DNA of 64,000 nt, taken from the NCBI GenBank assembly GCA_045642705.1, contig JAZUJK010000007.1, forward strand, positions 31,736-95,735. Direction: 5' to 3'. The position numbers and the translations under genes were made by a program. Below, piece after piece: positions 31,543-46,180 of the stretch (position 1 is the stretch's first letter; every line of letters begins with the position of its first letter). The notes beneath the pieces are model-generated. The model was not told the origin of the DNA. It did no database searches and was given only the letters and a program-made list of their open reading frames with translations. The stretch is from Acutalibacteraceae bacterium. GTDB taxonomy: Bacteria; Bacillota; Clostridia; Oscillospirales; Acutalibacteraceae.

Positions 31543-32796
31543 TTAATCGAGGCCACGCTCATCAAAGCGGAATGCAGTCTCAAGAAGTGTGTTGATGCCT
31601 GCCTTGATTGTGCGCTCATCGAGATTGTCTGCTGTGTCAAGACGTGTGTGATAATAGCGAGCTGGAGTTGGATCCATTGCTGCGAGGCAGCAAGCTTTCA
31701 TACCACCCTGAGCAAGAGCTGCAGCATCTGATGAACCAAAGAATACATTTGCATAAGGAAGGTCAAGACCAGCAGTCTTAGAACACTCCTTAACAAGTGC
31801 AGCTGTCTTGGCATCAAGCTTTACAGTGCCTGTCATATCCTTGTTATAGATACCCATGAAATCAAAGTCACGAAGTGTATCTGTGCATACTGCGATTGTC
31901 TCGATACCTGAGTCGGCATATTCCTTGGCATGCTTCTTAACGAAAGCCTTGGCACCGCGGAGACCAGCCTCCTCAGATGACATTGAAATAGATACAACCT
32001 CTGTATTTTCGAAACGGATATCATTGTCATTTAAGTACTGCATAACAGCCATAGATGCGAAAACACCTGAGAGGTTATCGTTAGCGCCATCAACACAAAT
32101 GCTCCAGTTCATAAAGAAGAGAACGAGTATCATTGCAGGAACTGAAAGAATTGCGAAAATCTTGGCAACGATAGTAAACCAAGTAGCTGCAACGCCACAT
32201 ACTGTGAGGATTACGATAACAAGATCTGCAACGAGGCATACAATGCCAGTTGCGATAATTGCTGTAAGTAAATGTCCGCCACCGAGATATGTATAGCGCC
32301 ACTCCCAAGCTGAATCAACATGTCCAGAGAAAATGATACGGCGTTTTGTCTCGCCTGCAGCTTTTCTTGTACATACTACATTATATGCATCCTTCTTAGG
32401 GAAAAGTGGATCGAGCAATTCCTTATAGAAAAGAAACTCACCGAGAATACATACTACAGAAATAACTGTTAGGATAAGTGCAACAATGGCAAGAGCTGTT
32501 ATTGGCTTTACGAAGAAGTAGATGATGAGAAGAACTGCTGTAATTAGCATGCATATACCATCTACAAGTACCCATCCCATAAAAGCCTTAGGATGAAGTG
32601 TAAAGTCCTCTTTATCAATCTTATCAGCAACTTTACCCATGTGGTCAATTACATAATCCTGAGCCTTGTGCTCCTCTGGATAACCAGATGCACGACCACC
32701 GCACATATCAATTACTGTCTTAATCTGAGTCTTGACATAATCTGTATACTTATCAAGTTGCTCATCATAGTTTTTTACGCTTTCTTTTGCAAGCAT
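31543..32796 (-). CDS. M28-family metallopeptidase with membrane-spanning insertions (paralog 2)
   Basis: The M28 ligand set is readable: FSGHVDSAW, DGANDNLSG, SSEEAGLRG, GSSDAAA and YYHTRLD. About 6 TM helices are inserted before and between GHVDS and DGANDN. Confidence 0.65.
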   Translation of the reverse strand: MLAKESVKNYDEQLDKYTDYVKTQIKTVIDMCGGRASGYPEEHKAQDYVIDHMGKVADKIDKEDFTLHPKAFMGWVLVDGICMLITAVLLIIYFFVKPITALAIVALILTVISVVCILGEFLFYKELLDPLFPKKDAYNVVCTRKAAGETKRRIIFSGHVDSAWEWRYTYLGGGHLLTAIIATGIVCLVADLVIVILTVCGVAATWFTIVAKIFAILSVPAMILVLFFMNWSICVDGANDNLSGVFASMAVMQYLNDNDIRFENTEVVSISMSSEEAGLRGAKAFVKKHAKEYADSGIETIAVCTDTLRDFDFMGIYNKDMTGTVKLDAKTAALVKECSKTAGLDLPYANVFFGSSDAAALAQGGMKACCLAAMDPTPARYYHTRLDTADNLDERTIKAGINTLLETAFRFDERGLD

Positions 32797-32860: not shown

Positions 32861-34102
32861 TTACTGCTTTGCGCCCTCATCGAACTTATCAAGTACACGA
32901 ACAGATACTGCATAGCAATCTGCAAGTCCCTTGTTATCCATGTTGTCATATGAGTCACGGCGTGTATGATAGTAATTCTCAAGCTTGTGGTTAAGTCCTG
33001 TAATACCTGTTGAACGGAAACCGCCCTGTGCAAATGCTGCATTATCTGTAGCACCGCCAAGTGGTGGAACCATACCCTTCTTGCACTGGATATTAAGTTC
33101 CTGTGCTGCTTCCATGAAGAGGTCAGATACATCCTTATCAGCCTTAACTGTTGCATTGAGGTCACGATAGTTAGTAAGAAGATACTTAGGATCGTGAATT
33201 GTATCATAAGAATAAATGAATGTTGGAACATCCTGGAACTCACCCTTGTGAGCTTCGCACCATGCCTTAGAACCACGGAGACCAGCTTCCTCTGAACCGG
33301 AGAGGATAACGCCTACTTCTGTGTTCTCAAGCTCGATGCCTGCATCCTTCATAGCCTTGAGGATTGCAATACCCATGTAGCAACCAGAAAGGTTGTCGTT
33401 AGCACCATCAACGATGCGATAACGGTTCCACATAAAGAACATATAAATCCAGAAAGGAACGAAGATAAGTCCGATATAAGCCATCTTAGCAATTGTAGAT
33501 GTAAGACCAGCTACAAGAATAGCGATATCAAGACCAAGATAATAAAGTGTACCAATAGCTGAGATAATGATAAGTCCCTCAAAGAGAATACCACCACCGA
33601 GGTAGTTTGCTGGCCACTCCCAAGCTGCGTCCTGGTGACCGTTGAAGAAAATTCTTCTCTTAACTTCACCCTTGCAAGACTTGATAGCTGTAACGTTAGT
33701 ACCAACCTTCTTTGGGAACATAAAGTCTACAACTTTCTTGTAGAGACCGAACTGAAGAAGTGCAAGAATCCAACCGAAAAGAATACAAGCAATACCAACG
33801 ATTGCTGCAACCTTGCTACCTGGGCAAAGTGGGATAAGAATAAGTGCGATGAAGCAAAGTGTGAATGTGATATGAATCCAGCCATAGAATGAACCTGGGT
33901 TCTCATCAAATGACTCGATGTCAACCTTTTCACATCCGCAGTCATTCTTCAATACATCTGCCATGTATTCACTTGCAAGTCTCTCACCCTCTGAACCTGG
34001 ATCTCTCTTAGGCAAATTCTTACAAATGTGAGTAATCTCGTTTACGATATACTCTGCGCTTTTGTCCTTCTCTGCAATTAAAGCGTCAAATTTTTCACTC
34101 AT
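32861..34102 (-). CDS. M28-family metallopeptidase with membrane-spanning insertions (paralog 1)
   Basis: It has the same motif set as its neighbour: FNGHQDAAW, DGANDNLSG, GSEEAGLRG, GATDNAA and YYHTRRD, with the same TM architecture. Confidence 0.65.
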   Translation of the reverse strand: MSEKFDALIAEKDKSAEYIVNEITHICKNLPKRDPGSEGERLASEYMADVLKNDCGCEKVDIESFDENPGSFYGWIHITFTLCFIALILIPLCPGSKVAAIVGIACILFGWILALLQFGLYKKVVDFMFPKKVGTNVTAIKSCKGEVKRRIFFNGHQDAAWEWPANYLGGGILFEGLIIISAIGTLYYLGLDIAILVAGLTSTIAKMAYIGLIFVPFWIYMFFMWNRYRIVDGANDNLSGCYMGIAILKAMKDAGIELENTEVGVILSGSEEAGLRGSKAWCEAHKGEFQDVPTFIYSYDTIHDPKYLLTNYRDLNATVKADKDVSDLFMEAAQELNIQCKKGMVPPLGGATDNAAFAQGGFRSTGITGLNHKLENYYHTRRDSYDNMDNKGLADCYAVSVRVLDKFDEGAKQ

Positions 34103-34154: not shown

Positions 34155-34187
34155 TAAAAAGCGCTCGAGTGTAAACCACTCGAGCGC
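34155..34187 (-). terminator. Intrinsic terminator ending the CODH/ACS operon
   Basis: GCGCUCGAGUGG-UUUA-CACUCGAGCGC is followed by UUUUU on the minus strand, 15 nt after the acsC::acsE stop. Confidence 0.75.
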
Positions 34188-34201: not shown

Positions 34202-36487
34202 TTACATATCGAGATAAGAGTCAGAATAGAGCTCGTTATTCTTGAATATGTCACAGGACTTAATTGTCTCCATAAGTCTCTTGTCACATGGGTTTACGAT
34301 AGCAGATGTAAGACCCTGCATCATACACATAGCAACGAGAGCTGAGTCCATAATTGGACGAACTTCCTTAGGAGCGCCGTTTGAGTTGTTAGAAAGACCA
34401 CCTGTTGACTTGAGTCCCTCATCAGCGAACATCTTGATAGCAGCAAGTACATCCATCTGCTTATCCTGCATGCCCTTTACAACGAGGAAGAGTGGGTCAA
34501 ACCAGAGATCATCTGACTCCATGCCGAGTGACATACCGAGGTCGAGCATCTTATGGCAGTGAGCCATGCGCTCCTCGTTGTCCTTAGCAATACCATCAGC
34601 TGAGCAAAGTGCGATACAGATAGCATCATTTGCAGCAGCAAGATTGATGTTATCAATACGTGAGCCAGCATCAGCTGAGTTTACGATTGGCTTACCATTT
34701 GTACGGTTATATACCTTGATACCAGCCTCGATAGCCTTCTTGTTAGCTGTATCGAGAGCAAGTGGCACGTTGTTGAAGTTCTCCTGGAGAAGTTTAACAG
34801 CCCAAGTCATAAGCTCAGGACCATTTGACTCTGCAGGTCCGATATTAACATCAAGATATGTTGCGCCGGCAGCAATCTGCTCAGCAGCTCTCTTGAGGAT
34901 TGGCTCTGGATCCATGTTATCCATAGCAGCCTTGATTGTAGGGCTGATGCAGTGGATACGCTCACCAATTGTTACGAACTTGTTAGAATCAACATTTCTT
35001 GTCTTGTACTGAACGCCCATATCAACAACCTTGATTTCTGGGATGCTTGCAGCGATCTTATCGAAATCAAGTGGTGCGTTCTCGTCTACCACCTTGGCCT
35101 CAGCCGTAGGTGCATCAGCCTTCTGAGCAGCAACTGCCTCTGCAGCCTTCTTATACTCGCCATCCTTGAGATACTTAACGATCTCAACAGCTTCACGAGT
35201 ACCAACTACAACATTCCACTCAGGAAGTTTGTCAGCGATTTCGCCCTTCATAACTGCAACCTTACCAGGGAGGATAAGTGTGCGGCTGTTGATCTTAGAT
35301 GCTACATCGAATTCCTCAAATGTCTTCTTAACAGAAGATGATGAGAACTTACCAGCAGCCCAAGCTGTAAGTACTGACATACCAGATGCATCAGTGATAA
35401 GAAGGTTTACTGGAACCTTAGAACGCTCAAGTTCACCTGTAACAAGGAAATATGTAAGAGCGAAGTCAACTGTGAGCATAACTGGATCATCAGGACCTGC
35501 ACCATTGATAGGATAGATACCTGGCTCAACCTTCATTGGCTTCTGAGGGTCAGTGTAGATATTCTGACGGAGACCATAAAGTGGAAGAGCCTCAGCCATT
35601 GTGATGTTTTCCATAACAATGATTGAACCATATTTAAGTGTGAAGAGTGCAGCATAAGCTGTCTGGAGATGTAAATCACCCTTAGCAAACTTAGGAAGTT
35701 TTACGATTGAAGGATAACCGAGTGACTTATCGCCATCCTTGATAGCGCCACGACGGCAGAATACAGCATTCTTGAGTGTTTCCTTAATATCAGCACCTGT
35801 GATGTTGATGATAAGATTCTTATTGCCTGCATCCTCGAGTGCCTTGATTGTGTCATAGATGTCCTCGATGCTGTCGCCACATACGCCAAGAGCGATGCCA
35901 GCAGCAGTAGCGATTTCGTTCATTGCGGCAAAGTTGTCCTTGTTAGCACCGCAGAGAACTGGCTTAGTATCCTTAATAGCGTCGATAGCAGCTTTTGCAA
36001 CAGCAGCATCTGTTGTCTCAACGATAACAGTACGGCCTGTTGCAGCAGCCTTCTTAGCGAGTTCTACGAGCTTGTCGCCCTCGCCGTGAACAAATACTGT
36101 CTCAACGAATTCGCGCTCGCCGATACGCTCGTAATCAATTTTCTTGAGTCCTTCAAGTTTTTCATCAATTGCAGCATCGTCCATGCATGTGCATACAGGA
36201 ACTGCAAATACGTTCTTGGAAACGAGTGTCTTCTCGTGACGGTAGAGAACTGTCTCACCACCGAGTGTGATTTCAGCATCTCCTGCGCCGATTTTGATTG
36301 TCTTCATTGCTGGAGCTGTAGCCTCAGAAAGAAGAGCCTTAGCCTCGTCAGACATATGTGGGCACTGATCAATTGATACTGCACCCTGAGCAACCTTCAT
36401 GCAGAAAGCCATACATGTTGGGCTTCCGCACTCCTTACAGTTTGTCTTAGGAGATAACTTGAAAATATCTAGTCCTTTAACAGCCAT
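34202..36487 (-). CDS. acsC-acsE: Fusion of the corrinoid iron-sulfur protein large subunit (AcsC) with the methyl-H4folate:corrinoid methyltransferase (AcsE/MeTr, pterin-binding domain)
   Basis: In aa 1-~445 I read the N-terminal 4Fe-4S motif CKECGSPTCMAFC...QCPH followed by the AcsC/CdhE TIM-barrel and Rossmann-type body. Residues ~446-502 are an Ala/Lys-rich linker. Residues ~503-761 read as a pterin-binding barrel (GERIHC..., GATYLDVNIG, ALDT, VNSA, FDPL, GLSNNSNG). It is a single uninterrupted 761-codon ORF. Confidence 0.8.
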   Translation of the reverse strand: MAVKGLDIFKLSPKTNCKECGSPTCMAFCMKVAQGAVSIDQCPHMSDEAKALLSEATAPAMKTIKIGAGDAEITLGGETVLYRHEKTLVSKNVFAVPVCTCMDDAAIDEKLEGLKKIDYERIGEREFVETVFVHGEGDKLVELAKKAAATGRTVIVETTDAAVAKAAIDAIKDTKPVLCGANKDNFAAMNEIATAAGIALGVCGDSIEDIYDTIKALEDAGNKNLIINITGADIKETLKNAVFCRRGAIKDGDKSLGYPSIVKLPKFAKGDLHLQTAYAALFTLKYGSIIVMENITMAEALPLYGLRQNIYTDPQKPMKVEPGIYPINGAGPDDPVMLTVDFALTYFLVTGELERSKVPVNLLITDASGMSVLTAWAAGKFSSSSVKKTFEEFDVASKINSRTLILPGKVAVMKGEIADKLPEWNVVVGTREAVEIVKYLKDGEYKKAAEAVAAQKADAPTAEAKVVDENAPLDFDKIAASIPEIKVVDMGVQYKTRNVDSNKFVTIGERIHCISPTIKAAMDNMDPEPILKRAAEQIAAGATYLDVNIGPAESNGPELMTWAVKLLQENFNNVPLALDTANKKAIEAGIKVYNRTNGKPIVNSADAGSRIDNINLAAANDAICIALCSADGIAKDNEERMAHCHKMLDLGMSLGMESDDLWFDPLFLVVKGMQDKQMDVLAAIKMFADEGLKSTGGLSNNSNGAPKEVRPIMDSALVAMCMMQGLTSAIVNPCDKRLMETIKSCDIFKNNELYSDSYLDM

Positions 36488-37442: not shown

Positions 37443-38210
37443 TTAAATGTCGATCTCACGGAGGAGTTCGAAAAGTTTTGCTTTGACTGGGGTGGTGTCA
37501 GGGACATAAGCCGTAGGCTTACCATCACAGTCATATTCATAAACGAGGTCATCGTGAGGAAGCACTCCGAGAAGCGGTAAATTGAACTTCTCTATCTCCT
37601 CTTTTACTCCTTCACTGAGTTCCCCGTTTGGAGCCCTATTTACAATGAGATGAATCTCACCTGGATTAAGTTTAAGCTCATCAATCATGTCACGAATTCT
37701 AGCAACCGCTTGAATTCCGCGACGTGAGCAGTCTGAGATTAAGAACATTACATCAACTGGTGGAAGTGTTCCACGGCTGATATGTTCAAGTCCAGCCTCA
37801 TTGTCGATTACAGTGTAACTGTAATTCTTAATGTACTTATCTATCTGAGTCTTCAGTAGGCCGTTTACAAAGCAATAGCAGCCTTGGCCCTGTGTGCGAC
37901 CCATAACTATCATATCGAAGTCTTTTTCCTCGATAAGTGCATCTTCAAATTTAAATTCAGCGTAGTCAGCCTTGGACATGCCCTCTGGAATTTTTCCATC
38001 GATTTCAGAATGGGCAATCTCCTCTCGGATAGAACCGAGTGTGATATCCGCCTCTACGCCAAGTACTTCATTGAGGTTAGAATTGGCATCTGCATCAACC
38101 ACGAGTATTGGCTCATTTGACTTGCGAATTAGGTAGTCAATAGCCATGCCACAAGTGGTTGTCTTTCCAACGCCACCTTTTCCTACAACAGCAATAGTTT
38201 TATTTGCCAT
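37443..38210 (-). CDS. cooC: CooC/AcsF-type Ni-insertion ATPase (copy 2)
   Basis: Deviant Walker A VVGKGGVGKTT (MinD/ParA class), a CxC-like metal motif region (GQGCYCF) and 255 aa. Its start overlaps the cooT stop (TAATG). Confidence 0.8.
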   Translation of the reverse strand: MANKTIAVVGKGGVGKTTTCGMAIDYLIRKSNEPILVVDADANSNLNEVLGVEADITLGSIREEIAHSEIDGKIPEGMSKADYAEFKFEDALIEEKDFDMIVMGRTQGQGCYCFVNGLLKTQIDKYIKNYSYTVIDNEAGLEHISRGTLPPVDVMFLISDCSRRGIQAVARIRDMIDELKLNPGEIHLIVNRAPNGELSEGVKEEIEKFNLPLLGVLPHDDLVYEYDCDGKPTAYVPDTTPVKAKLFELLREIDI

Positions 38211-38401
38211 TATGCTCTCTCCTTAACAATTACCTTGCTGGAAAGTAAATCAACTGAAACGAGATCACCGTCTATTTCAAGTTTTCTCTCCATAAGATCT
38301 GTAAGTACTACAAGATTATCTAAAATTTCGATCTTGGCAACATTGCTCATTAGGATGTTTCCAGAATCGATATCATTTCCATAAACAGTTGAAAGACACA
38401 T
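38210..38401 (-). CDS. cooT: CooT-family small nickel-binding protein
   Basis: 63 aa starting MC (Cys2 is the Ni ligand in R. rubrum CooT). The beta-rich sequence has CooT length and sits between Ni-maturation genes. The RBS is AGGAGG. Confidence 0.6.
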   Translation of the reverse strand: MCLSTVYGNDIDSGNILMSNVAKIEILDNLVVLTDLMERKLEIDGDLVSVDLLSSKVIVKERA

Positions 38402-38415
38402 ATTGTACCTCCTAT

Positions 38416-38664
38416 TTATGCGAGTTTGGACAGCGCCTCTGCGAGGATATCATTACCCTTGTGATAATTTTCTACTGCAGCCATAACCTCTGCATAGACT
38501 TCCTCATTACCAGCGTCCTTGATATCAAGTGCCAGATGCTCCAATTCATGTGTATGTTCTGCATTGTGACCAACCATATATTTCATAAGAGCAACGAGTT
38601 CTTCTACTGGTGTTGCCATACTATCGTGGTCGTGGTGTTCATGGTGCATATGCATATCAATCAA
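38416..38664 (-). CDS. Histidine-rich small helical protein (candidate Ni-binding chaperone, family not recognised)
   Basis: ~80 aa. The N-terminus is M(ID)MHMHHEHHDHD, and further His residues follow (GHNAEHTHELEH, NYH). Two long predicted helices are present. Its start overlaps the end of the DUF3786 gene. Confidence 0.5.
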   Translation of the reverse strand: MIDMHMHHEHHDHDSMATPVEELVALMKYMVGHNAEHTHELEHLALDIKDAGNEEVYAEVMAAVENYHKGNDILAEALSKLA

Positions 38665-39283
38665 GCTCCTTCATTTTGATTTTTAACAGTGTTATTAGCA
38701 TCTCTGCCATTACTACTCTGTCCTCAGCCGCAAATGAGCCCTCGAAATTATCAGAGTAGAGAATCTGTGAGTTTGGTGGGAATTCGTCGTCGCCTTCCCA
38801 AACTAAAATTTGGATAAAATAGCCAGGCATAACTTCAAATTCATAGCCCGCGTCACCGTGGTTTATTTTGGTTGCACCGAGTGCCTCTGATGCGGCGCAA
38901 AATTTTGGAACGCAAGTTCCAAAAGTAAATGCTGCGCGTTTAATACAGCGACCGGTGAAAGGTTCTATATACATCTCACCCCAAGACATTTCGCGGAATG
39001 TCTTGAATGTGCCAAGCGACATTCTCCTCTCGAATTCTAGGAGAATTCGCATGAGGAATGTCTTGGCCTTGAGATCAGAGAGGCAAAATGCACTCTCATT
39101 ACTTGAAGTTACAGAAAACTCCGGCCATGTGATTTTATAATCATCGAACAGGAAGTCGAGCGAGAATACACCGTCGCTGTATTTTGCGCCGCTCCTGTCC
39201 ATTGCATCCATTGGATCAAGTTTTTTAAAGAGTTCCTCATAATGTGCAAAAGGAACTTCTTTTATATTGTTTTGTACTTCCAT
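38657..39283 (-). CDS. DUF3786-like protein (commonly found in acs clusters)
   Basis: 208 aa. The C-terminal block ILVWEGDDEFPPNSQILYSDNF...EDRVVMAEML matches the conserved DUF3786 core as I remember it. Confidence 0.55.
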   Translation of the reverse strand: MEVQNNIKEVPFAHYEELFKKLDPMDAMDRSGAKYSDGVFSLDFLFDDYKITWPEFSVTSSNESAFCLSDLKAKTFLMRILLEFERRMSLGTFKTFREMSWGEMYIEPFTGRCIKRAAFTFGTCVPKFCAASEALGATKINHGDAGYEFEVMPGYFIQILVWEGDDEFPPNSQILYSDNFEGSFAAEDRVVMAEMLITLLKIKMKELD

Positions 39284-41221
39284 TTAAAACTCCTGTTTTG
39301 CACTTGGAAATCTGGACAAATCTGTATGTGGCAAGAAACAAGCAGCAATAAAGTTATCCATATATCCTGGATAAGTTGAGAGTTCAATATATGTCATATT
39401 ACGTGATAATTCATTGACTTTCTTCTCTGCATTTCTTGATAGCACACAGGTATAAGAACCTGCGAGTGAAGAGTTTCCGATATATTCATACTTATCAAGT
39501 TCGATATCTGGGAACATACCAATATTAATAGCATTCTTGATATTGATACCGCTTCCAATTCCGCCTGCAACATAGAAATGTTCAATGACAGATGCATCCA
39601 TATCAAGGCTGGATAGAAGTGTATCTATTCCAGAATAAATAGCGCCCTTGGCTCTTACAAAGCTCTCGATATCAACCTCAGTCAGAACAATTTCACGACC
39701 GGTCTCGGAGTCGGATGAATTTACAACAACATAGCTGCCCATTCCGTACTCGTCATACTTTATTCTGTCGCCCTGTCTCACATATCTGCCCTTGGAATTA
39801 ACAATTCCACAACGGTAGAGTTCTGAGATTATATCAATAATTCCTGAGCCACATAGGCCGATTGGCTTTTGACCAGCGTCGCCGATAATCTCATATGTCG
39901 GCTCCATAGTCTCAGCATCAATCTTGATAGACTGAATAGCTCCGTCTGTTGCTCTCATGCCACAACTGATATCTCCACCCTCAAATGCAGGGCCAGCTGA
40001 GCATGCGCAGCTCATCATAAAGTCTCTATTTCCAAATACGATCTCACCATTGGTACCAAGGTCAACGAAGAGGGACAATTCATCCTTATCCCACAGAAGT
40101 GTTGCGAGTGTACCAGCAGTAATATCTCCGCCTACATAAGAGCCAATATTAGGACAAATTATGAGGCGAGCATTAGGATTTACATGAATTCCAATCTCCA
40201 TTGCAAAGATGTCATCTGCAAGGAAGAAAGTTGGAATATATGGTTCCATGCGAACCGGATTCGCATCCACGCCGAGCAAGAGATGATTCATCGTCGTGTT
40301 GGATGCGACGCATACCTTTAATATCTTCTTAGGTGAAATATTTGCAGTCTCACAGAGTCTCGTTACAAGAGGCTCAATTGTCTCGCGTACAACAGCGTCC
40401 TTTAGGCGCTTTACACCACCTGTCTTGCCCTGCTCGATGATACGGTTGATAACGTCCGCACCATATCTTATCTGGCCATTGCCAGATGAAGCCTTGGCAA
40501 GGAGTTCTCCGCCCTTCAAGTTAACAAGAACTGCTGATACTGTTGTTGTACCAATATCGATAGCAAGACCGCAGAGAGGCTCATGATCCTCAAATGATGA
40601 AACTCCATATACGAAGAAGTCTGGACCTCTATGCTCACCTATTACTCTTACTTTAAAATCATTCTCACGGAGAACTCTTGCGAGGTCCCTTGTAACTGAG
40701 AATGGAATTGTTACTTTTGAAACGCCAAAAGCCGCTTTTACAGCATTCACGAAGCGCTCGTTGTCTGGAAGCGTATCATCGAGAGTAGGCTCTGGGAGCT
40801 CGATGCGCTCTGCAGCAAATGTGTTTACAAGATCTATACCAGCGCCCTTGATATCGCTAAGTAGTTTTTCAAAAATAGCAATTTCTGTGCCACTTGAGAG
40901 ATCTGCAGTCTGCATTCTGCTCTGGTATGCAGTGGCAATATCAGGAACCATAACTGTTACGTCAGATATAACTTTTGAACCACATGAGAGAACCCAGCCC
41001 TCGGCCAGTTCCTCATCTGTGATATGACTTGAAGGCCAGCAGTTCAGCTCGCCCTCGATACGTCTTACTTTACATTTACCGCATGCGCCATTGCCACTGC
41101 ATGGTGCATCAATAGCGACATTGGCATGTTGTGCCACCTGGAGCAGATTTGCTCCAGGCGCACAAGATACCGTCACCGGTTGTCTGTCTTCATTTTCAAA
41201 TGTAAAGGTTACATCAAACAT
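39284..41221 (-). CDS. acsV: Reductive activator of corrinoid protein (RACo/AcsV; 2Fe-2S ferredoxin domain plus ASKHA ATPase)
   Basis: An N-terminal plant-type 2Fe-2S motif CSGNGACGKCKV...C is followed by ASKHA phosphate motifs (LAIDIGTTTV, VDLGTNGE) and C-terminal GNSSLAG. 645 aa. Confidence 0.8.
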   Translation of the reverse strand: MFDVTFTFENEDRQPVTVSCAPGANLLQVAQHANVAIDAPCSGNGACGKCKVRRIEGELNCWPSSHITDEELAEGWVLSCGSKVISDVTVMVPDIATAYQSRMQTADLSSGTEIAIFEKLLSDIKGAGIDLVNTFAAERIELPEPTLDDTLPDNERFVNAVKAAFGVSKVTIPFSVTRDLARVLRENDFKVRVIGEHRGPDFFVYGVSSFEDHEPLCGLAIDIGTTTVSAVLVNLKGGELLAKASSGNGQIRYGADVINRIIEQGKTGGVKRLKDAVVRETIEPLVTRLCETANISPKKILKVCVASNTTMNHLLLGVDANPVRMEPYIPTFFLADDIFAMEIGIHVNPNARLIICPNIGSYVGGDITAGTLATLLWDKDELSLFVDLGTNGEIVFGNRDFMMSCACSAGPAFEGGDISCGMRATDGAIQSIKIDAETMEPTYEIIGDAGQKPIGLCGSGIIDIISELYRCGIVNSKGRYVRQGDRIKYDEYGMGSYVVVNSSDSETGREIVLTEVDIESFVRAKGAIYSGIDTLLSSLDMDASVIEHFYVAGGIGSGINIKNAINIGMFPDIELDKYEYIGNSSLAGSYTCVLSRNAEKKVNELSRNMTYIELSTYPGYMDNFIAACFLPHTDLSRFPSAKQEF

Positions 41222-41243: not shown

Positions 41244-43382
41244 TTAGATATCCATAGGCTCCATCTCAAGTACTGGATGGCCAACCTCTGAAAGATATGC
41301 AAGAAGTTCCTCTGGATCTCCTGAACCGCATACTGTCTCATCAGCAATCATATCAGCGAAGTTCTCAATACCATATACTTCACTTGCTGTTGCATTGATC
41401 TTGTCGCGAATCTGCTCCTTGAGATCAGATGGCAACCATACGAGACGAGGAAGTCCGCCCTCAGCCTTCAAGAATTTCTTAGAAGCGATATAGTGCTTGC
41501 CGTGTCCCATGAATCCTGGTGTCTGAACACCGCCACCTGTCATTGATGCCATCTCAGAGAATGTCATACCAAGTGGTGTGATACCTGTATGCTCACGTGT
41601 TGTAATAACAACACCCATTGAGCAAGGCTCGATACCGCAGATACACTCAAAGCATCCGCATGATGTCATAGGATCCTCGAGGAGTGAGTAAAGTGTTACA
41701 TGCTCGAGTGCGCCATGTGAGAGGTTGTTTACTACTTCGTCAACATCCTCGTAACGACCAACACGCTCGTCAAGGCACTTCTCCTTGGTTACTACCTGGC
41801 AAGGACCTGTTGGGTCGAGCTCGTTAGTAGCCTTCGCATCAAGCCATGATACAGCACCGCAGAGTCCGAGACGCTCAGGTGTTACAATGCAAACGTGGCT
41901 TGGTGAGAATGCCTGGCACATGATACATGAATAGAATACAGGTACTGATTCATCAGTCATGGACTTGAGTCTTTCATCACGCTTATCGAATATCTTATTA
42001 GCCTCAGCACGAAGAGCCTTATTCTTCTCTTCGTCGATTACGATCTTAACCTGGCACTTATCAACAACAGTGTCAAAGTCAGACATAATCTTGGCATATA
42101 GAACTTCACCTATATGCTTAAACTTGAATCCTGCCTCATAGTCAGCCTTGCTGATACGGATACGAATCATATCACGCTGACCTGTGTGCATAAGACCCTC
42201 TACGCAGTTGAGGTAAGAGTGGAACTTACGCTCAAATACTGACTCGAAGTCTGTCTGCATGTTCTTACCAGCAACTTCTACTGTGTAAGAAGCTGAGAGC
42301 TTAGCACCCTCTGGGAACTCATCAATCTCAGGACCTTCAACTGTGATCTTGTGATCCTCAATCTCTGTAGCGTCCTTAGTCTGAACGAGCTCGAAGCAGT
42401 CAACACGAGAACCATCGATTTCAACCTGCATGTCTGCCTTACGAATGATTTCGCCTTCGAATGCAGTTGAGAATGAAACTGGGATATCAATCTTAGTTAC
42501 CTTAATCTTGATTCCACGTGCTTCAAGAGATGTATCAATCCAGTCCTTAGTATCCTCATTGATAACGAGTGACTTAGGTACTGACCACATATCATCTGTA
42601 TCATTTGTAATTACTGGGAAGCCAAGCTTGATAGCACCAGCGCCGCAGGCAACTGTGATATCAGGAACTGGCTTGTAAGCGTTTACAAATGCATTGATTC
42701 TATCAAATGTGTATCTATGGAAACCATCCCAGTCACCTGGCTGAACATTACCAAAGATCATTGCTGTACGTGTTACAAGAGAAATGATGTGGCCTACGCC
42801 CCAAATTTCATCTGTAACAGGTACAAGACGTACTGGGAATCCCATGTTTACGCCTGCCTCATACATCTGGTCAATAATGCCACCGATGAGGAAGATAAAG
42901 ATACCACGTGACTGGTATCCCTTTACGATTTCAACAGCTTCCTCTGTTGATGGTGCAGGACCAATCATTACAACGAAGCCAGGGATATCGTTTGTTACAA
43001 GTGGAACACCGAGTTCACGTACTTCTGCATCTGAGAAGTGACCATGATACTTTGTTCCCTCATAAGGAGTTGGTGTCTCAACATACTTACATGCTTCAAT
43101 CATTTCTGCTGCGATTGCTGTACCTACGCCAGACCAAAAGATTGACTTTGTTCGTGGTTCGCGAAGCATCATAGCCTTGACATCAGCAAGTGCATCTTGA
43201 AGTTCACCAGTTGTTGTTACTTTTTTACCTATATATGCATAGATGCAAGCGAGATAATATGCTGTATTAGGCATATTAAGTGGCGCATCTCTTCCGACTT
43301 TTTCGACGATAGCGTTTACCTCAGCTTCTGCTTTTGCAAACATCTCGTCTGAACCACGGAATACTCTTTCAAAAAGTGCCAT
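41244..43382 (-). CDS. acsB: Acetyl-CoA synthase (CO-methylating) alpha subunit
   Basis: 712 aa with A-cluster cysteines in CIMCQAFSPSHVC...LCGA and SCGCFECI, and the NMPNTAYYL N-terminal region typical of bacterial AcsB. Confidence 0.9.
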   Translation of the reverse strand: MALFERVFRGSDEMFAKAEAEVNAIVEKVGRDAPLNMPNTAYYLACIYAYIGKKVTTTGELQDALADVKAMMLREPRTKSIFWSGVGTAIAAEMIEACKYVETPTPYEGTKYHGHFSDAEVRELGVPLVTNDIPGFVVMIGPAPSTEEAVEIVKGYQSRGIFIFLIGGIIDQMYEAGVNMGFPVRLVPVTDEIWGVGHIISLVTRTAMIFGNVQPGDWDGFHRYTFDRINAFVNAYKPVPDITVACGAGAIKLGFPVITNDTDDMWSVPKSLVINEDTKDWIDTSLEARGIKIKVTKIDIPVSFSTAFEGEIIRKADMQVEIDGSRVDCFELVQTKDATEIEDHKITVEGPEIDEFPEGAKLSASYTVEVAGKNMQTDFESVFERKFHSYLNCVEGLMHTGQRDMIRIRISKADYEAGFKFKHIGEVLYAKIMSDFDTVVDKCQVKIVIDEEKNKALRAEANKIFDKRDERLKSMTDESVPVFYSCIMCQAFSPSHVCIVTPERLGLCGAVSWLDAKATNELDPTGPCQVVTKEKCLDERVGRYEDVDEVVNNLSHGALEHVTLYSLLEDPMTSCGCFECICGIEPCSMGVVITTREHTGITPLGMTFSEMASMTGGGVQTPGFMGHGKHYIASKKFLKAEGGLPRLVWLPSDLKEQIRDKINATASEVYGIENFADMIADETVCGSGDPEELLAYLSEVGHPVLEMEPMDI

Positions 43383-43399
43383 AATTCATCTATCCTTTC

Positions 43400-44167
43400 T
43401 TATAGTCGATTGTCGAGTTTTTCCTTGATTGCTCTGATTTCATCAAGAGCCTCAGGGCTACAATCGTATGGAGAGAGGCCTCTGCGGTCCGCATCAATTA
43501 CGTCCGCATTATAACTTATGAATCCGAGTAGATCTTCTTCTGGGATTTTAGATTTAATAAACTCCCTATCACTGTCATCGCGAATCTTGTTCGCAACTAC
43601 GTAAACCTTATTTACGCCAATATCTGCTGCAAGTCGTTTTACATTCTCATATGTCTGAATTGAACGAGCGCCTGGCTCGATAACTACGATAAAGAAATCA
43701 ACGAGGCTTGCCGTGCCACGTGCCAGATGTTCAAGTCCTGCTTCCATGTCCATAACGACCACGTCGTCACGGCGGAAAACGAGCGCTGACAGTACGGACT
43801 TTAGCATCACATGCTCAGGACATACACAGCCGGAACCGCCGGTTTCGACTGTTCCCATAACGAGGAGTTTAACCCCGTTTATGTCCTTGCCGTACTTGTC
43901 AGGTATATCTGACACCTCTGGGTTGAGCTTAAAGAATTTGTTGGCATCATTTGCGCCGGTTCTCTCCTCAACCAAGGTACGCATCTTGGATATTGGAACT
44001 ATTTGATTTACTTCTTCAAGTGAAAGGCCAAGTGCAAGTCCGAGATTAGCATCCGGATCAACGTCGGCTGCGAGCACTGTTCTGCCCTCATCGGCGTATA
44101 GCCTTGCAAGTGTTGATGACAATGTTGTCTTGCCAACTCCACCCTTGCCTGTAATCGCAAGTTTCAT
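43400..44167 (-). CDS. cooC: CooC/AcsF-type Ni-insertion ATPase (copy 1)
   Basis: Walker A ITGKGGVGKTT, metal motif GSGCVCPEH and 255 aa. It lies between acsA and acsB. Confidence 0.8.
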   Translation of the reverse strand: MKLAITGKGGVGKTTLSSTLARLYADEGRTVLAADVDPDANLGLALGLSLEEVNQIVPISKMRTLVEERTGANDANKFFKLNPEVSDIPDKYGKDINGVKLLVMGTVETGGSGCVCPEHVMLKSVLSALVFRRDDVVVMDMEAGLEHLARGTASLVDFFIVVIEPGARSIQTYENVKRLAADIGVNKVYVVANKIRDDSDREFIKSKIPEEDLLGFISYNADVIDADRRGLSPYDCSPEALDEIRAIKEKLDNRL

Positions 44168-44189: not shown

Positions 44190-46088
44190 CTAAATGCAGA
44201 GTGCTGCACGTTTATTCTCGATAGCCTCAATCATAAGGTCGCCGAGCTTGTCGATATCTTTCTCAACTGTGAAGTTAGCCTCAACCCACTTCTTGGTTCC
44301 AGACTCTCCACGGAGAAGTTCGATAACTTCCTCGGAACCCTCACAGAAAGGCTCAACGCCGAGATATGTATCGATACCAGTTGCTACTACGTAGTTACCG
44401 ATTGATACAGCCTTCTCGGACATCCACTCAGGTGCACAACCTACAAGTGGAATCTGTGAGATATTAATACCCCAGTCATTTGCTATATCTGTTGCAAGGA
44501 TCATCATACGAGAGATATCTACGCATGAGCCCATGTGAAGAATTGGTGGGATACCAACGAGTTCACATACACGACGGAGACCCTCACCGCAGCAGTCCTT
44601 AGCTTCGAGGTCCATAAGACCAGCCTTGGCAGCTGCTTGAGCAGAACATCCAGATACGACAACAATGATGTCGTTCTCGATAAGTTTCTTCATAAGCTCG
44701 ATATGAGCATAGTCAGCACGAACCTTAGGGTTGTTACAACCTACCATTGCAACTGCGCCGCGGATAACACCTGACTTAACTGCATCAACGAGAGGCATCA
44801 TTGTGCCAGTCTCATCAACGTGGCTGTTTGTTACGCCGTCAAGGCACTTCTTGATAGCCTCAACTGAGTAACCTACACGAGCGTTGGTCTTGATGTCAGG
44901 AATATTTACAAGCTCAGGATTACGATTCTTAAAGTTTTCACAAGCAAGCTTTACGATTTCCTTAGCATTTTCTGCTGCTGTCTTGTCTGTGAACTCAATG
45001 AAATCAGAATCAGGCATACGAGCGATTTTGCTTGTTGTAATGAACTTGGTGTGGAAGCACTTGGAAAGAGGTCCGAGTGCTGGGAAGATACACTGTACGT
45101 CAACAACAATTGCTTCGCATGCACCAGTTAGTACAACGTTCTCCTGCTGGAGGAAGTTACCTGCCATTGGAATACCATGACGCATTGCAACTTCATTAGA
45201 TGTACAACATACACCAGCGATGTTGATGCCAGTCGCGCCGTTTGCCTTAGCGAGGGCGATCATCTCTGGGTCCTGTGCATAGAAAACAATCATCTCTGAG
45301 AGTGATGGGTCATGGCCATGAACGATAATATTAACCATGTCCTTCTCCATAACTCCGAGGTTTGCGTGAGTATCAATAGGCTTAGGTGTACCGAAAAGTA
45401 CATCTGAGAACTCTGTACCCATCATTGAACCGCCCCAGCCGTCTGACAAACCGGCGCGGAGTGAATGCTTGATAAGAGCTTCTGGAAGTGAAGAACATCC
45501 CATATGTGTCATATGGAGAGCCTGTGATACCTCGCGGTCAATTGCGCGTGGTAAAATGTCAGCCTCTTCCCAGAGTTTTCTTGTATGCTCTGGTGCACGC
45601 TCTGTGAAACGAAGATTTCCGAATGGCTTACCATATTCGAGAAGTCCTGTCTCTGCTACTTCATGTGCGATATCATAGATGTCGCGACCTTCTGTAGCGA
45701 TTCCCCACTCACCAGCAATCTTTATTAGCTTGTCTGGATCCTTTACTTGGTAAGCACCATCTTCTGATGTGCTATATAGAGTATGTGCGATTGAGCGGCC
45801 GTGGTCTGAATGAGTTGCAGAACCGCCAGCTGTAAATCTCAAGTAGTTACGAGCAACTATACCGTGAGCATCGCATCCGCATATTCCGCGCGGTGACTTA
45901 GGTGTTATACGGCAAGGTCCCATACTACAGATTCGGCAACAAATACCCTGCTCGCCAAACTTACAATGTGGAGTCTGGTTTTCTACACGTTGTTGCCAAG
46001 AGTCAGCTCCAACTTTCTTGCCTGTATCAAGCAAGGCCTGAGTTGCAGCTTCCATCTCTTCAATTGAAATAAGTTTATCCCAATTCAC
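44190..46088 (-). CDS. acsA: Anaerobic Ni-Fe carbon monoxide dehydrogenase catalytic subunit
   Basis: B/D-cluster motif HCKFGEQGICCRICSMGPCRI and downstream C-cluster Cys/His blocks (HGHD, GVCCT, GCNN, MGSCVD). I set the start at the GTG (46088), 7 nt after AGGAGG. The ORF track TTG (46106) contains that RBS. Confidence 0.9.
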   Translation of the reverse strand: MNWDKLISIEEMEAATQALLDTGKKVGADSWQQRVENQTPHCKFGEQGICCRICSMGPCRITPKSPRGICGCDAHGIVARNYLRFTAGGSATHSDHGRSIAHTLYSTSEDGAYQVKDPDKLIKIAGEWGIATEGRDIYDIAHEVAETGLLEYGKPFGNLRFTERAPEHTRKLWEEADILPRAIDREVSQALHMTHMGCSSLPEALIKHSLRAGLSDGWGGSMMGTEFSDVLFGTPKPIDTHANLGVMEKDMVNIIVHGHDPSLSEMIVFYAQDPEMIALAKANGATGINIAGVCCTSNEVAMRHGIPMAGNFLQQENVVLTGACEAIVVDVQCIFPALGPLSKCFHTKFITTSKIARMPDSDFIEFTDKTAAENAKEIVKLACENFKNRNPELVNIPDIKTNARVGYSVEAIKKCLDGVTNSHVDETGTMMPLVDAVKSGVIRGAVAMVGCNNPKVRADYAHIELMKKLIENDIIVVVSGCSAQAAAKAGLMDLEAKDCCGEGLRRVCELVGIPPILHMGSCVDISRMMILATDIANDWGINISQIPLVGCAPEWMSEKAVSIGNYVVATGIDTYLGVEPFCEGSEEVIELLRGESGTKKWVEANFTVEKDIDKLGDLMIEAIENKRAALCI

Positions 46089-46180
46089 TGATGTAACCTC
46101 CTGCAAAATAATTTTTTAAAATTAACCAATTAATATTTTATCAAATGTAATTAATAAAAGCCTTACCTCGTTTTGTGTAA

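Follow-up and report, generated by a model that had tools for sequence, protein, structure and literature searches.

The window analysed here, 64,000 nucleotides of contig JAZUJK010000007.1 (positions 31,736 to 95,735 of the forward strand, assembly GCA_045642705.1) from an Acutalibacteraceae bacterium, contains an operon for the carbon monoxide dehydrogenase/acetyl-CoA synthase (CODH/ACS), and the last gene of this operon is our subject. In this gene acsC, coding for the large subunit of the corrinoid iron-sulfur protein (CFeSP), and acsE, coding for the methyltransferase (MeTr), are joined into a single open reading frame (ORF), acsC::acsE, at 34202..36487 on the minus strand. An earlier note, made on the letters of the DNA, had proposed one uninterrupted frame of 761 codons, and the frame is indeed started by an ATG and has no internal stop. 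The domain limits proposed at the same time (AcsC from residue 1 to about 445, a linker, then MeTr from about 503 to 761) agree within a few residues with the Pfam, NCBIfam and PDB matches presented below, and the coordinates of all features are collected in Table 1.

Each half of the chain is recognized as a whole protein. Three Pfam models follow one another along the chain, FeS (13-44), CdhD (64-439) and Pterin_bind (525-732). Among the NCBIfam models, residues 1-442 cover positions 1-445 of the 450 of NF003195 (AcsC/CdhE gamma) with 506 bits, for a cut-off of 306, and residues 502-761 cover positions 2-261 of the 261 of NF040758 (CODH_ACS_meth) with 467 bits, for a cut-off of 370. Searching the sequences of the PDB with residues 1-442 returns CFeSP large subunits (9fzy_F, with an E value of 4e-142, and also 2h9a_A, 4c1n and 4djd_C), while residues 506-761 return the methyltransferases 1f6y, 2e7f and 2yci, with E values of about 1e-34 to 1e-38. 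The [4Fe-4S] motif and the corrinoid-binding body that the earlier note had read in the first half are both present: the four cluster cysteines, Cys17, Cys20, Cys25 and Cys42, in the motif CKECGSPTC...C, align with those of 9fzy_F and 2h9a_A, and the body is covered by the NF003195 match. In the second half D579, N603, D664, N700 and R710, invariant across an alignment of 63 sequences, are the counterparts, by alignment to 1f6y/2e7f, of D75, N96, D160, N199 and R207 of the Moorella enzyme, residues which we take, from the 2E7F/2OGY work, to bind and activate the pterin. A full-length AlphaFold2 (AF2) model, built on 102 aligned sequences, fused as well as unfused, has a mean predicted local distance difference test (pLDDT) of 87 and a predicted template-modelling score (pTM) of 0.56; within its AcsC half, an interdomain hinge at residues 313-317 falls below a pLDDT of 50. 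Compared with known structures by Foldseek, the AcsC half matches 9fzy_F with a template-modelling (TM) score of 0.75, normalised to the target over 440 columns, and 2h9a_A with 0.77. The MeTr half, a barrel like that of dihydropteroate synthase, matches 1f6y_A with 0.90 and 2yci with 0.88, for a root-mean-square deviation (rmsd) of 2.1, so that the complete pterin-binding barrel of the earlier note finds its place in both profile and model. No single PDB chain spanning the two halves with a credible fit was found by Foldseek, its only long alignments being to MetH chains, with an rmsd of about 24 and a TM score of 0.3-0.4; the MetH model TIGR02082 reaches 81 bits for a cut-off of 1011, and its match is confined to the region of the folate domain. 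By these comparisons residues 1-442 are a full AcsC and residues 502-761 a full AcsE, with catalytic and ligand residues intact, and binding of the corrinoid, together with acceptance or donation of a methyl group, is the predicted function of the AcsC half. In one respect the second half departs from AcsE as usually defined, a free-standing polypeptide of about 262 residues, for it is here the C-terminal domain of a 761-residue chain.

The segment lying between the two halves had been described as a uniform Ala/Lys/Glu-rich linker of about 55 residues. Its length and position stand, its uniform composition and flexibility do not, as only some 14 residues look flexible. In 82 fused sequences from Oscillospirales, about 70% identical overall, it measures 55-63 residues, mostly 56-59, with a first half that is variable and rich in Ala, Lys and Glu and a second half that carries a conserved motif. 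Conservation and AF2 models divide it into three parts. An Ala-rich helix (residues 444-458) prolongs the last helix of AcsC, with a pLDDT of 82-91 in the full-length model that falls to about 55 once AcsC is removed. It is followed by a hinge (residues ~459-472), which shows the lowest conservation and the most insertions and deletions among the 82 homologues, with a pLDDT of 58 in the full-length model and of 49 when residues 441-761 are folded alone. Then comes what we call the strap (residues 473-501), whose motif reads L-x-F-...-P483-x-I485-x-V-V-D-M-G-V-x-Y494-K-..-N-P-E-S, with F475, P483, I485 and Y494 conserved at 98-100% in the same set, and to which the full-length model gives a pLDDT of 86-91. 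When residues 441-761 are folded alone, 471-500 keep a pLDDT of 89-94 and 441-470 drop to about 50-55. Because it keeps its order without AcsC, the strap belongs to the MeTr half, and it is modelled as an ordered N-terminal extension of MeTr, 29 residues long, that packs on the barrel and is absent from unfused AcsE. According to the models, then, the connector consists of a helix, some 14 hinge residues and a strap, instead of a floppy tether of 55 residues, and the geometry of the whole would be more constrained than with such a tether.

It might be asked whether the MeTr half is also translated on its own. A methionine, M490, located 12 residues ahead of the ancestral start of AcsE, is conserved in 78% of the 82 fused sequences, and the ancestral start methionine itself is replaced by Ser, Lys or Asn in fused sequences. 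No promoter-like site was found on the coding strand inside the fusion ORF, and no convincing Shine-Dalgarno sequence ahead of M490, where there is only a weak AAGG. In the absence of an internal promoter, with a weak ribosome-binding site at M490 and the ancestral methionine replaced, separate translation of MeTr is unlikely.

The fusion is not restricted to one assembly. A search for related loci found that at least 582 stretches of species genomes encode a relative; the best 80 were translated, and all 80, from different species genomes that include isolates, contain a single fused ORF. Nine of 17 congeners hold the fused gene, the match to MeTr lying each time (9/9) in one open frame of 763-809 residues without a stop within the match, and the three congener loci that were extracted are single fused ORFs. 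A DNA pattern spanning the junction (P483-x-I485 ... Y494-K ... F-V-T-I-G-E-R) occurs in at least 119 genome stretches; those listed are, by record title, nearly all gut metagenome-assembled genomes (MAGs) of the Oscillospiraceae/Faecousia type, from human, chicken and ruminant, a few matches bearing uninformative or apparently mislabelled titles, and they include the isolate Pseudoflavonifractor sp. MSJ-30. In a search of metagenome proteins that gave 8000 matches, the best 120 are 728-764 residues long, each with CdhD and Pterin_bind. The closest related record, 95% identical, is an Acutalibacteraceae MAG; further carriers go under the labels Oscillospiraceae, Faecousia, Candidatus Avoscillospira, CAG-170 and CAG-110, and a further isolate is Faecousia intestinalis CLA-AA-H192. 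The host, a gut bacterium with a small genome, belongs to the order Oscillospirales, not to the Lachnospiraceae, and within a large gut clade of this order the fusion is the rule, not a one-off.

Beyond this clade the picture differs, and the survey that the earlier note had called for gives a divided answer: the fusion is common in the gut Oscillospirales clade, and the other Clostridia sampled have separate genes. Among 401 genomes sampled from the order, AcsE is above cut-off in seven, fused in two (the host included) and free-standing in five, with 263-270 residues. A sample of 399 genomes from the class added 12 others with the acsC/acsE subfamily, all as separate matches. The DNA was read directly in six genomes, five of the class sample and one of the order sample, and every one of them has acsC next to acsE as a separate gene. 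In the textbook clusters of Moorella and Clostridium/Acetobacterium, which the earlier note had cited, acsC and acsE are likewise distinct. As cases in point, five apparent fusions in Clostridia, four with open frames of 729-742 residues (G649, G701, G726 and G520) and one with a match running from 1 to 761 (G676), were rejected when the ORFs were read (loci L173-L177): they are separate adjacent genes of 454 and 265 residues, some of them in frame across a single stop codon. The length reported for an open frame, 729-744 residues over all five, is, on its own, misleading as evidence of fusion.

Two further observations concern conservation and presence. In the fused clade the MeTr half is far better conserved than the AcsC half (loci L008, L029 and L044 were compared with the window): in Pseudoflavonifractor sp. 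MSJ-30, for instance, the identities are 88% and 67% respectively, and in the closest MAG the MeTr half is identical (100%) to that of the window, for 92% in the AcsC half. The CODH/ACS island is patchy in the genus, being present in nine of 17 congeners, some with incomplete genomes, a pattern that suggests that the 12-kb island was gained or lost as a whole.

How the fusion arose can be read from its unfused relatives. There, acsC ends in ...KFLKD(L/Y)K, followed by a stop codon, then by 24-36 nucleotides with a Shine-Dalgarno sequence, then by AcsE beginning with M-x-K-F-x-x-I-G-E-R. No similarity to residues 446-501 was seen in the unfused loci or their spacers, and with just 24-36 nucleotides and no such similarity these spacers also speak against an origin of the connector by read-through of the ancestral intergenic sequence, which was accordingly rejected. 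The event was more than the loss of a stop codon, because about 57 codons are new. The ancestral state, as judged from these comparisons, is that of adjacent acsC and acsE, and the fusion would have dropped the stop of acsC and the start of acsE while gaining about 57 codons. In maximum-likelihood trees the Oscillospirales fusions are monophyletic, with support of 0.998 for AcsC and 0.999 for AcsE, and nested among unfused Clostridia, which points to a single origin within this class.

Outside Clostridia the same fusion appeared again. When 1.84 billion representative proteins were scored, the best 150 included only two that are fused over the full length: P0122, 80% identical, which stands for the fused Oscillospirales clade, and P0133, a distant protein of 719 residues that is 34% identical. 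Taken at face value, tblastn coverage (1-718) would have made the fusion very widespread in Desulfobacterota and Chloroflexota; this was rejected, since in 69 of 80 relatives of P0133 a check of the ORFs revealed separate genes. Six Thermodesulfobacteriaceae loci (L088-L091, L093 and L094, in Thermodesulfobacterium and Thermodesulfatator MAGs) are true single ORFs; Pfam was run on three of them, with FeS, CdhD and Pterin_bind in this order, and the context of a CODH/ACS cluster was read in two. Their linker, Lys/Glu-rich and variable (35-85 residues), is unrelated to the Oscillospirales connector. In the AcsC tree they form a clade of their own among unfused Thermodesulfobacteriaceae; the grouping is poorly supported in the AcsE tree. 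By these comparisons the AcsC-AcsE fusion has arisen independently at least twice, which argues that such a tether can be tolerated and is probably of use. A Dehalococcoidia MAG (JAUXAP010000014.1, locus L102:8001-10232) contains a 744-residue acsC-acsE ORF, essentially without linker; its Dehalococcoidia relatives are unfused and it stands alone among them, so that it represents either a sequencing error or a third, independent fusion. Among the representatives, an AcsC-like protein of 589 residues (P0237) appears to have its C-terminal corrinoid-binding domain duplicated.

The gene is embedded in a co-directional operon, in the order acsA-cooC-acsB-acsV-208-aa ORF-two small ORFs-cooC-acsD-acsC::acsE-terminator. 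AcsD, the obligatory partner of AcsC, is encoded 17 nucleotides upstream of the fusion ORF. The two cooC assignments come from context, the genes having only matches to MinD/ParA-type ATPases, below cut-offs. The two small ORFs are plausible nickel-handling accessories of the operon. Directly downstream of the terminator lie two further ORFs on the minus strand, 31543-32796 (417 residues) and 32861-34102 (413 residues), the latter without any NCBIfam match.

Table 1. Features of the acsC::acsE gene, of its product and of the surrounding CODH/ACS operon, in window coordinates
Feature	Coordinates	Strand	Basis or remark
acsC::acsE fusion ORF	34202..36487	-	761 aa, 81.9 kDa; stop codon 34202-34204 included
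N-terminal [4Fe-4S] domain, aa 1-60	36308..36487	-	Pfam FeS; aligned to solved CFeSP large subunits
AcsC TIM-barrel domain, aa ~61-312	35552..36307	-	Pfam CdhD; AF2 secondary structure; Foldseek 9fzy_F
AcsC C-terminal corrinoid-binding domain, aa ~318-443	35159..35536	-	NF003195 over 1-442; HgcA corrinoid-domain models over 317-449
Connector part 1, Ala-rich helix extending the last AcsC helix, aa 444-458	35114..35158	-	AF2
Connector part 2, variable A/K/E/P-rich flexible hinge, aa ~459-472	35072..35113	-	conservation and AF2
Connector part 3, conserved strap, aa 473-501	34985..35071	-	conservation and AF2
MeTr (AcsE) pterin-binding TIM barrel, aa 502-761	34205..34984	-	NF040758; 1f6y/2e7f alignment; Foldseek
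acsA/cooS, Ni-CODH catalytic subunit	44190..46106	-	TIGR01702, 621 bits, cut-off 478
First cooC-type ATPase	43400..44167	-	named from context
acsB, acetyl-CoA synthase	41244..43382	-	NF040764, 990 bits, cut-off 800
acsV / RACo-type reductive corrinoid activator	39284..41221	-	NF040756, 925 bits, cut-off 800
208-aa ORF without family match	38657-39283	-	
Small ORF, 82 aa, His-rich N-terminus (MIDMHMHHEHHDHD...)	38416-38664	-	
Small ORF, 63 aa, starts MC..., possibly CooT-like	38210-38401	-	
Second cooC-type ATPase (Ni insertion)	37443..38210	-	named from context
acsD, CFeSP small subunit, 300 aa	36505..37407	-	NF040759 WLP_AcsD, 443 bits, cut-off 430
Intrinsic-terminator-like hairpin, 11 bp, 8 GC, T-run	34161..34187	-	15 nt past the fusion stop codon; operon end

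The host genome, a MAG-like assembly of 26 contigs and 1.52 Mb, is 97% complete. As the earlier note had stated, no separate acsE was found within the CODH/ACS cluster, and the genome holds only one other pterin-binding methyltransferase, on another contig (C8, locus L002:1447-2890, minus strand), an ORF of 268 residues that matches NF005719 with 274 bits for a cut-off of 259. Directly upstream of it is a small corrinoid protein of 211 residues, resembling MtbC/MtgC, and congeners without CODH/ACS hold weak matches of this kind, in open frames of about 270-290 residues with 84-104 bits. Because of this corrinoid-protein neighbour and of its presence in congeners without CODH/ACS, we take the methyltransferase for a component of a substrate demethylase module rather than for a spare AcsE. 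The methyl branch, as the source of methyl-H4folate, is encoded elsewhere: fhs and metF are about 2.3 kb apart, with ORFs between them, on another contig, C24:27781-32693 (loci L171 and L172), so that the genes of the pathway occupy two loci or more.

Our preferred reading is that acsC::acsE is a genuine, selectively maintained fusion, with an 82-kDa bifunctional AcsC-AcsE subunit as its predicted product, and we consider it likely. An obvious rival is an artefact of assembly or sequencing, adjacent acsC and acsE having been merged in a MAG because a stop codon was lost or the frame was shifted. It could draw on the 26 contigs of the assembly and on the ancestral order of the two genes; however, about 57 extra codons are wholly absent from unfused relatives, the same ORF, connector length and motif are found in 80 of 80 species assemblies, isolates included, and the pattern specific to the junction is present in at least 119 stretches. 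The stop or frameshift in the linker that the earlier note had named as the mark of a mis-assembly was found in none of the relatives. Because the same single ORF is present in all 80 independently assembled relatives, mis-assembly is untenable, and we leave this explanation next to no chance.

Two other readings accept the gene and dispute what the fusion does. The working enzymes may be free AcsC and free AcsE, the connector being cleaved after translation or MeTr being made also from an internal start such as M490. The conservation of M490 just ahead of the ancestral start speaks for this, and processing might, in principle, take place at a conserved connector. Yet M490 is not universal, the ancestral methionine has given way to Ser, Lys or Asn, neither a coding-strand internal promoter nor more than the weak AAGG accompanies it, and the models predict order in the conserved segment, as a piece of MeTr and not an exposed loop. 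The Thermodesulfobacteriaceae fusion, furthermore, has a wholly different connector, and altogether a functional split is very unlikely. Alternatively the fusion might be neutral, of the 'Rosetta-stone' kind, bringing no gain in kinetics or stability, fixed by drift and persisting since a new split is improbable. Adjacent genes of interacting proteins commonly fuse, a single event accounts for most carriers, which form a monophyletic clade, and close unfused relatives appear functional with separate genes. Against this stand the connector, held at 55-63 residues with four strap residues at 98-100% in proteins about 70% identical overall, the independent recurrence in Thermodesulfobacteriaceae, and the strap, a new ordered element in the models; we judge neutrality unlikely. 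To be sure, a selectively maintained bifunctional subunit is not free of difficulties: the relative placement of the two halves is of low confidence (pTM 0.56), a MeTr that dimerises when fused is an assumption taken over from structures of the free enzymes, and the direction of the flux, towards synthesis or cleavage of acetyl-CoA, is not readable from sequence.

A scheme for the working of the bifunctional subunit can be proposed. Free MeTr is a homodimer in solved structures. By analogy with these and with the solved CFeSP/MeTr complex (4DJD family), the fusion protein would pair with AcsD and dimerise through its MeTr barrels; protomers in the resulting (AcsC-E)2(AcsD)2 particle would stand 1:1, as they do in the crystallised Moorella CFeSP/MeTr complex. 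In this particle the mobile corrinoid domain, which already has a hinge of its own at residues 313-317, would be anchored on the MeTr barrel via the helix, the hinge of about 14 residues and the strap, and would swing between two sites: at the active site of MeTr its Co(I) would become CH3-Co(III), and at AcsB the A-cluster would receive the methyl group, with AcsV repairing any oxidised Co(II). Through the tether, MeTr would reach a higher local concentration, equimolar synthesis would be guaranteed, and the time during which the oxidation-prone Co(I) is unengaged would probably be shorter. The earlier note had spoken of intramolecular transfer; free MeTr being a homodimer, the transfer in an (AcsC-E)2 dimer could be of the cis or of the trans kind. 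A bolder version makes of this a stable all-in-one methyl-transfer particle, a MeTr-dimerised (AcsC-E)2(AcsD)2 in which the strap would set the point of departure of the hinge from the MeTr barrel and so programme the geometry of the corrinoid domain's swing between MeTr and the A-cluster, a covalent bacterial counterpart of the archaeal acetyl-CoA decarbonylase/synthase (ACDS), so that 'acsE-less' gut Oscillospirales would be fully competent, possibly kinetically superior, users of the pathway; this we regard as possible, if rather doubtful.

These gut bacteria have indeed been noted for lacking acsE. In a 2024 survey of Ni-CODH in the human gut, based on KEGG orthologues assigned by eggNOG-mapper, acsE went undetected in 78% of the Oscillospirales genomes with CODH/ACS, in seven of nine genera, and acsCDE were missing from the context of cooS in seven of eight Oscillospirales genera (PMC11338639). 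The same survey reported that cooS, acsB, fhs, folD as well as metF of Faecousia and of CAG-170 are transcribed, as seen in metatranscriptomes from the human gut (PMC11338639), and both taxa, two main genera of that survey, carry the fused gene in the records examined. The 'missing acsE' is probably a consequence of annotation with one label per gene, the fused ORF having received the label of acsC alone and its MeTr half being hidden. If this is true, abundant and transcriptionally active gut lineages own a complete carbonyl branch, which matters when acetogenesis, H2 turnover and CO turnover in the gut are estimated. A MeTr twice tethered to a corrinoid domain in the course of evolution would also offer cryo-electron microscopy, and work on the kinetics of "molecular juggling", a CFeSP/MeTr assembly that is stoichiometric and probably has greater stability, and engineers would find in it a ready-made connector length and strap design for fusing both proteins in industrial acetogens.

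Searchable full-text literature, with a coverage that leaves out Adam et al. 2018 (PNAS) on the evolution of CODH/ACS, gave no description of an AcsC-AcsE fusion; the arrangement which the earlier note had thought might already be described in characterised acetogens was thus not encountered there. Specialists in the field would not be astonished that adjacent genes of docking partners fuse; the strap, the nearly fixed length of the connector, the recurrence and the correction of an annotation add a moderate weight. What is new is a conserved, twice-evolved fusion of two known partners, not a new kind of system, and this becomes clear when it is set beside its relatives. With the systems of Moorella thermoacetica (4DJD/4DJE/4DJF, 1F6Y, 2E7F) and Carboxydothermus hydrogenoformans (2H9A, 2YCL, 2YCI), and with the CODH/ACS-CFeSP complex 9FZY, it shares the domains and their order within each half, the ligands, the pterin residues and the operon partners acsD, acsB, acsA and acsV. 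In those systems, however, AcsC (about 445 residues) and AcsE (about 262 residues) are separate and dock non-covalently, whereas here they make one chain via helix, hinge and strap. Its closest relatives are the unfused clusters of Oscillospirales and other Clostridia (L168, L169 and L173-L178), with the same gene order and with AcsC 53-63% and AcsE 67-75% identical; they differ by a stop codon, a spacer of 24-36 nucleotides with a ribosome-binding site, and the M-x-K-F start of AcsE. The Thermodesulfobacteriaceae fusions, represented by P0133, have the same FeS-CdhD-Pterin_bind layout, again in CODH/ACS clusters, but are 34% identical and joined by an unrelated linker. There is also a likeness to MetH, in concept the nearest precedent, which brings together in one chain a pterin-binding TIM barrel, where the methyl of CH3-H4folate is taken up, and a mobile corrinoid domain that moves from one active site to another, and whose folate domain is homologous to the MeTr half. 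By contrast with MetH, the order of the domains is reversed, the homocysteine and S-adenosylmethionine activation domains are absent, the corrinoid domain belongs to the CFeSP type, and the methyl group goes to the Ni-Ni-[4Fe-4S] A-cluster. Finally, methyl transfer from pterin to corrinoid is built into the corrinoid iron-sulfur protein (CoFeSP, CdhE/CdhD) of archaeal ACDS, which uses no free methyltransferase (bioRxiv 10.64898/2026.07.07.736967). That CoFeSP, working with tetrahydromethanopterin or tetrahydrosarcinapterin (H4MPT/H4SPT), has no domain of the AcsE type, whereas in the gut Oscillospirales it is the bacterial AcsE barrel itself that has been covalently appended.

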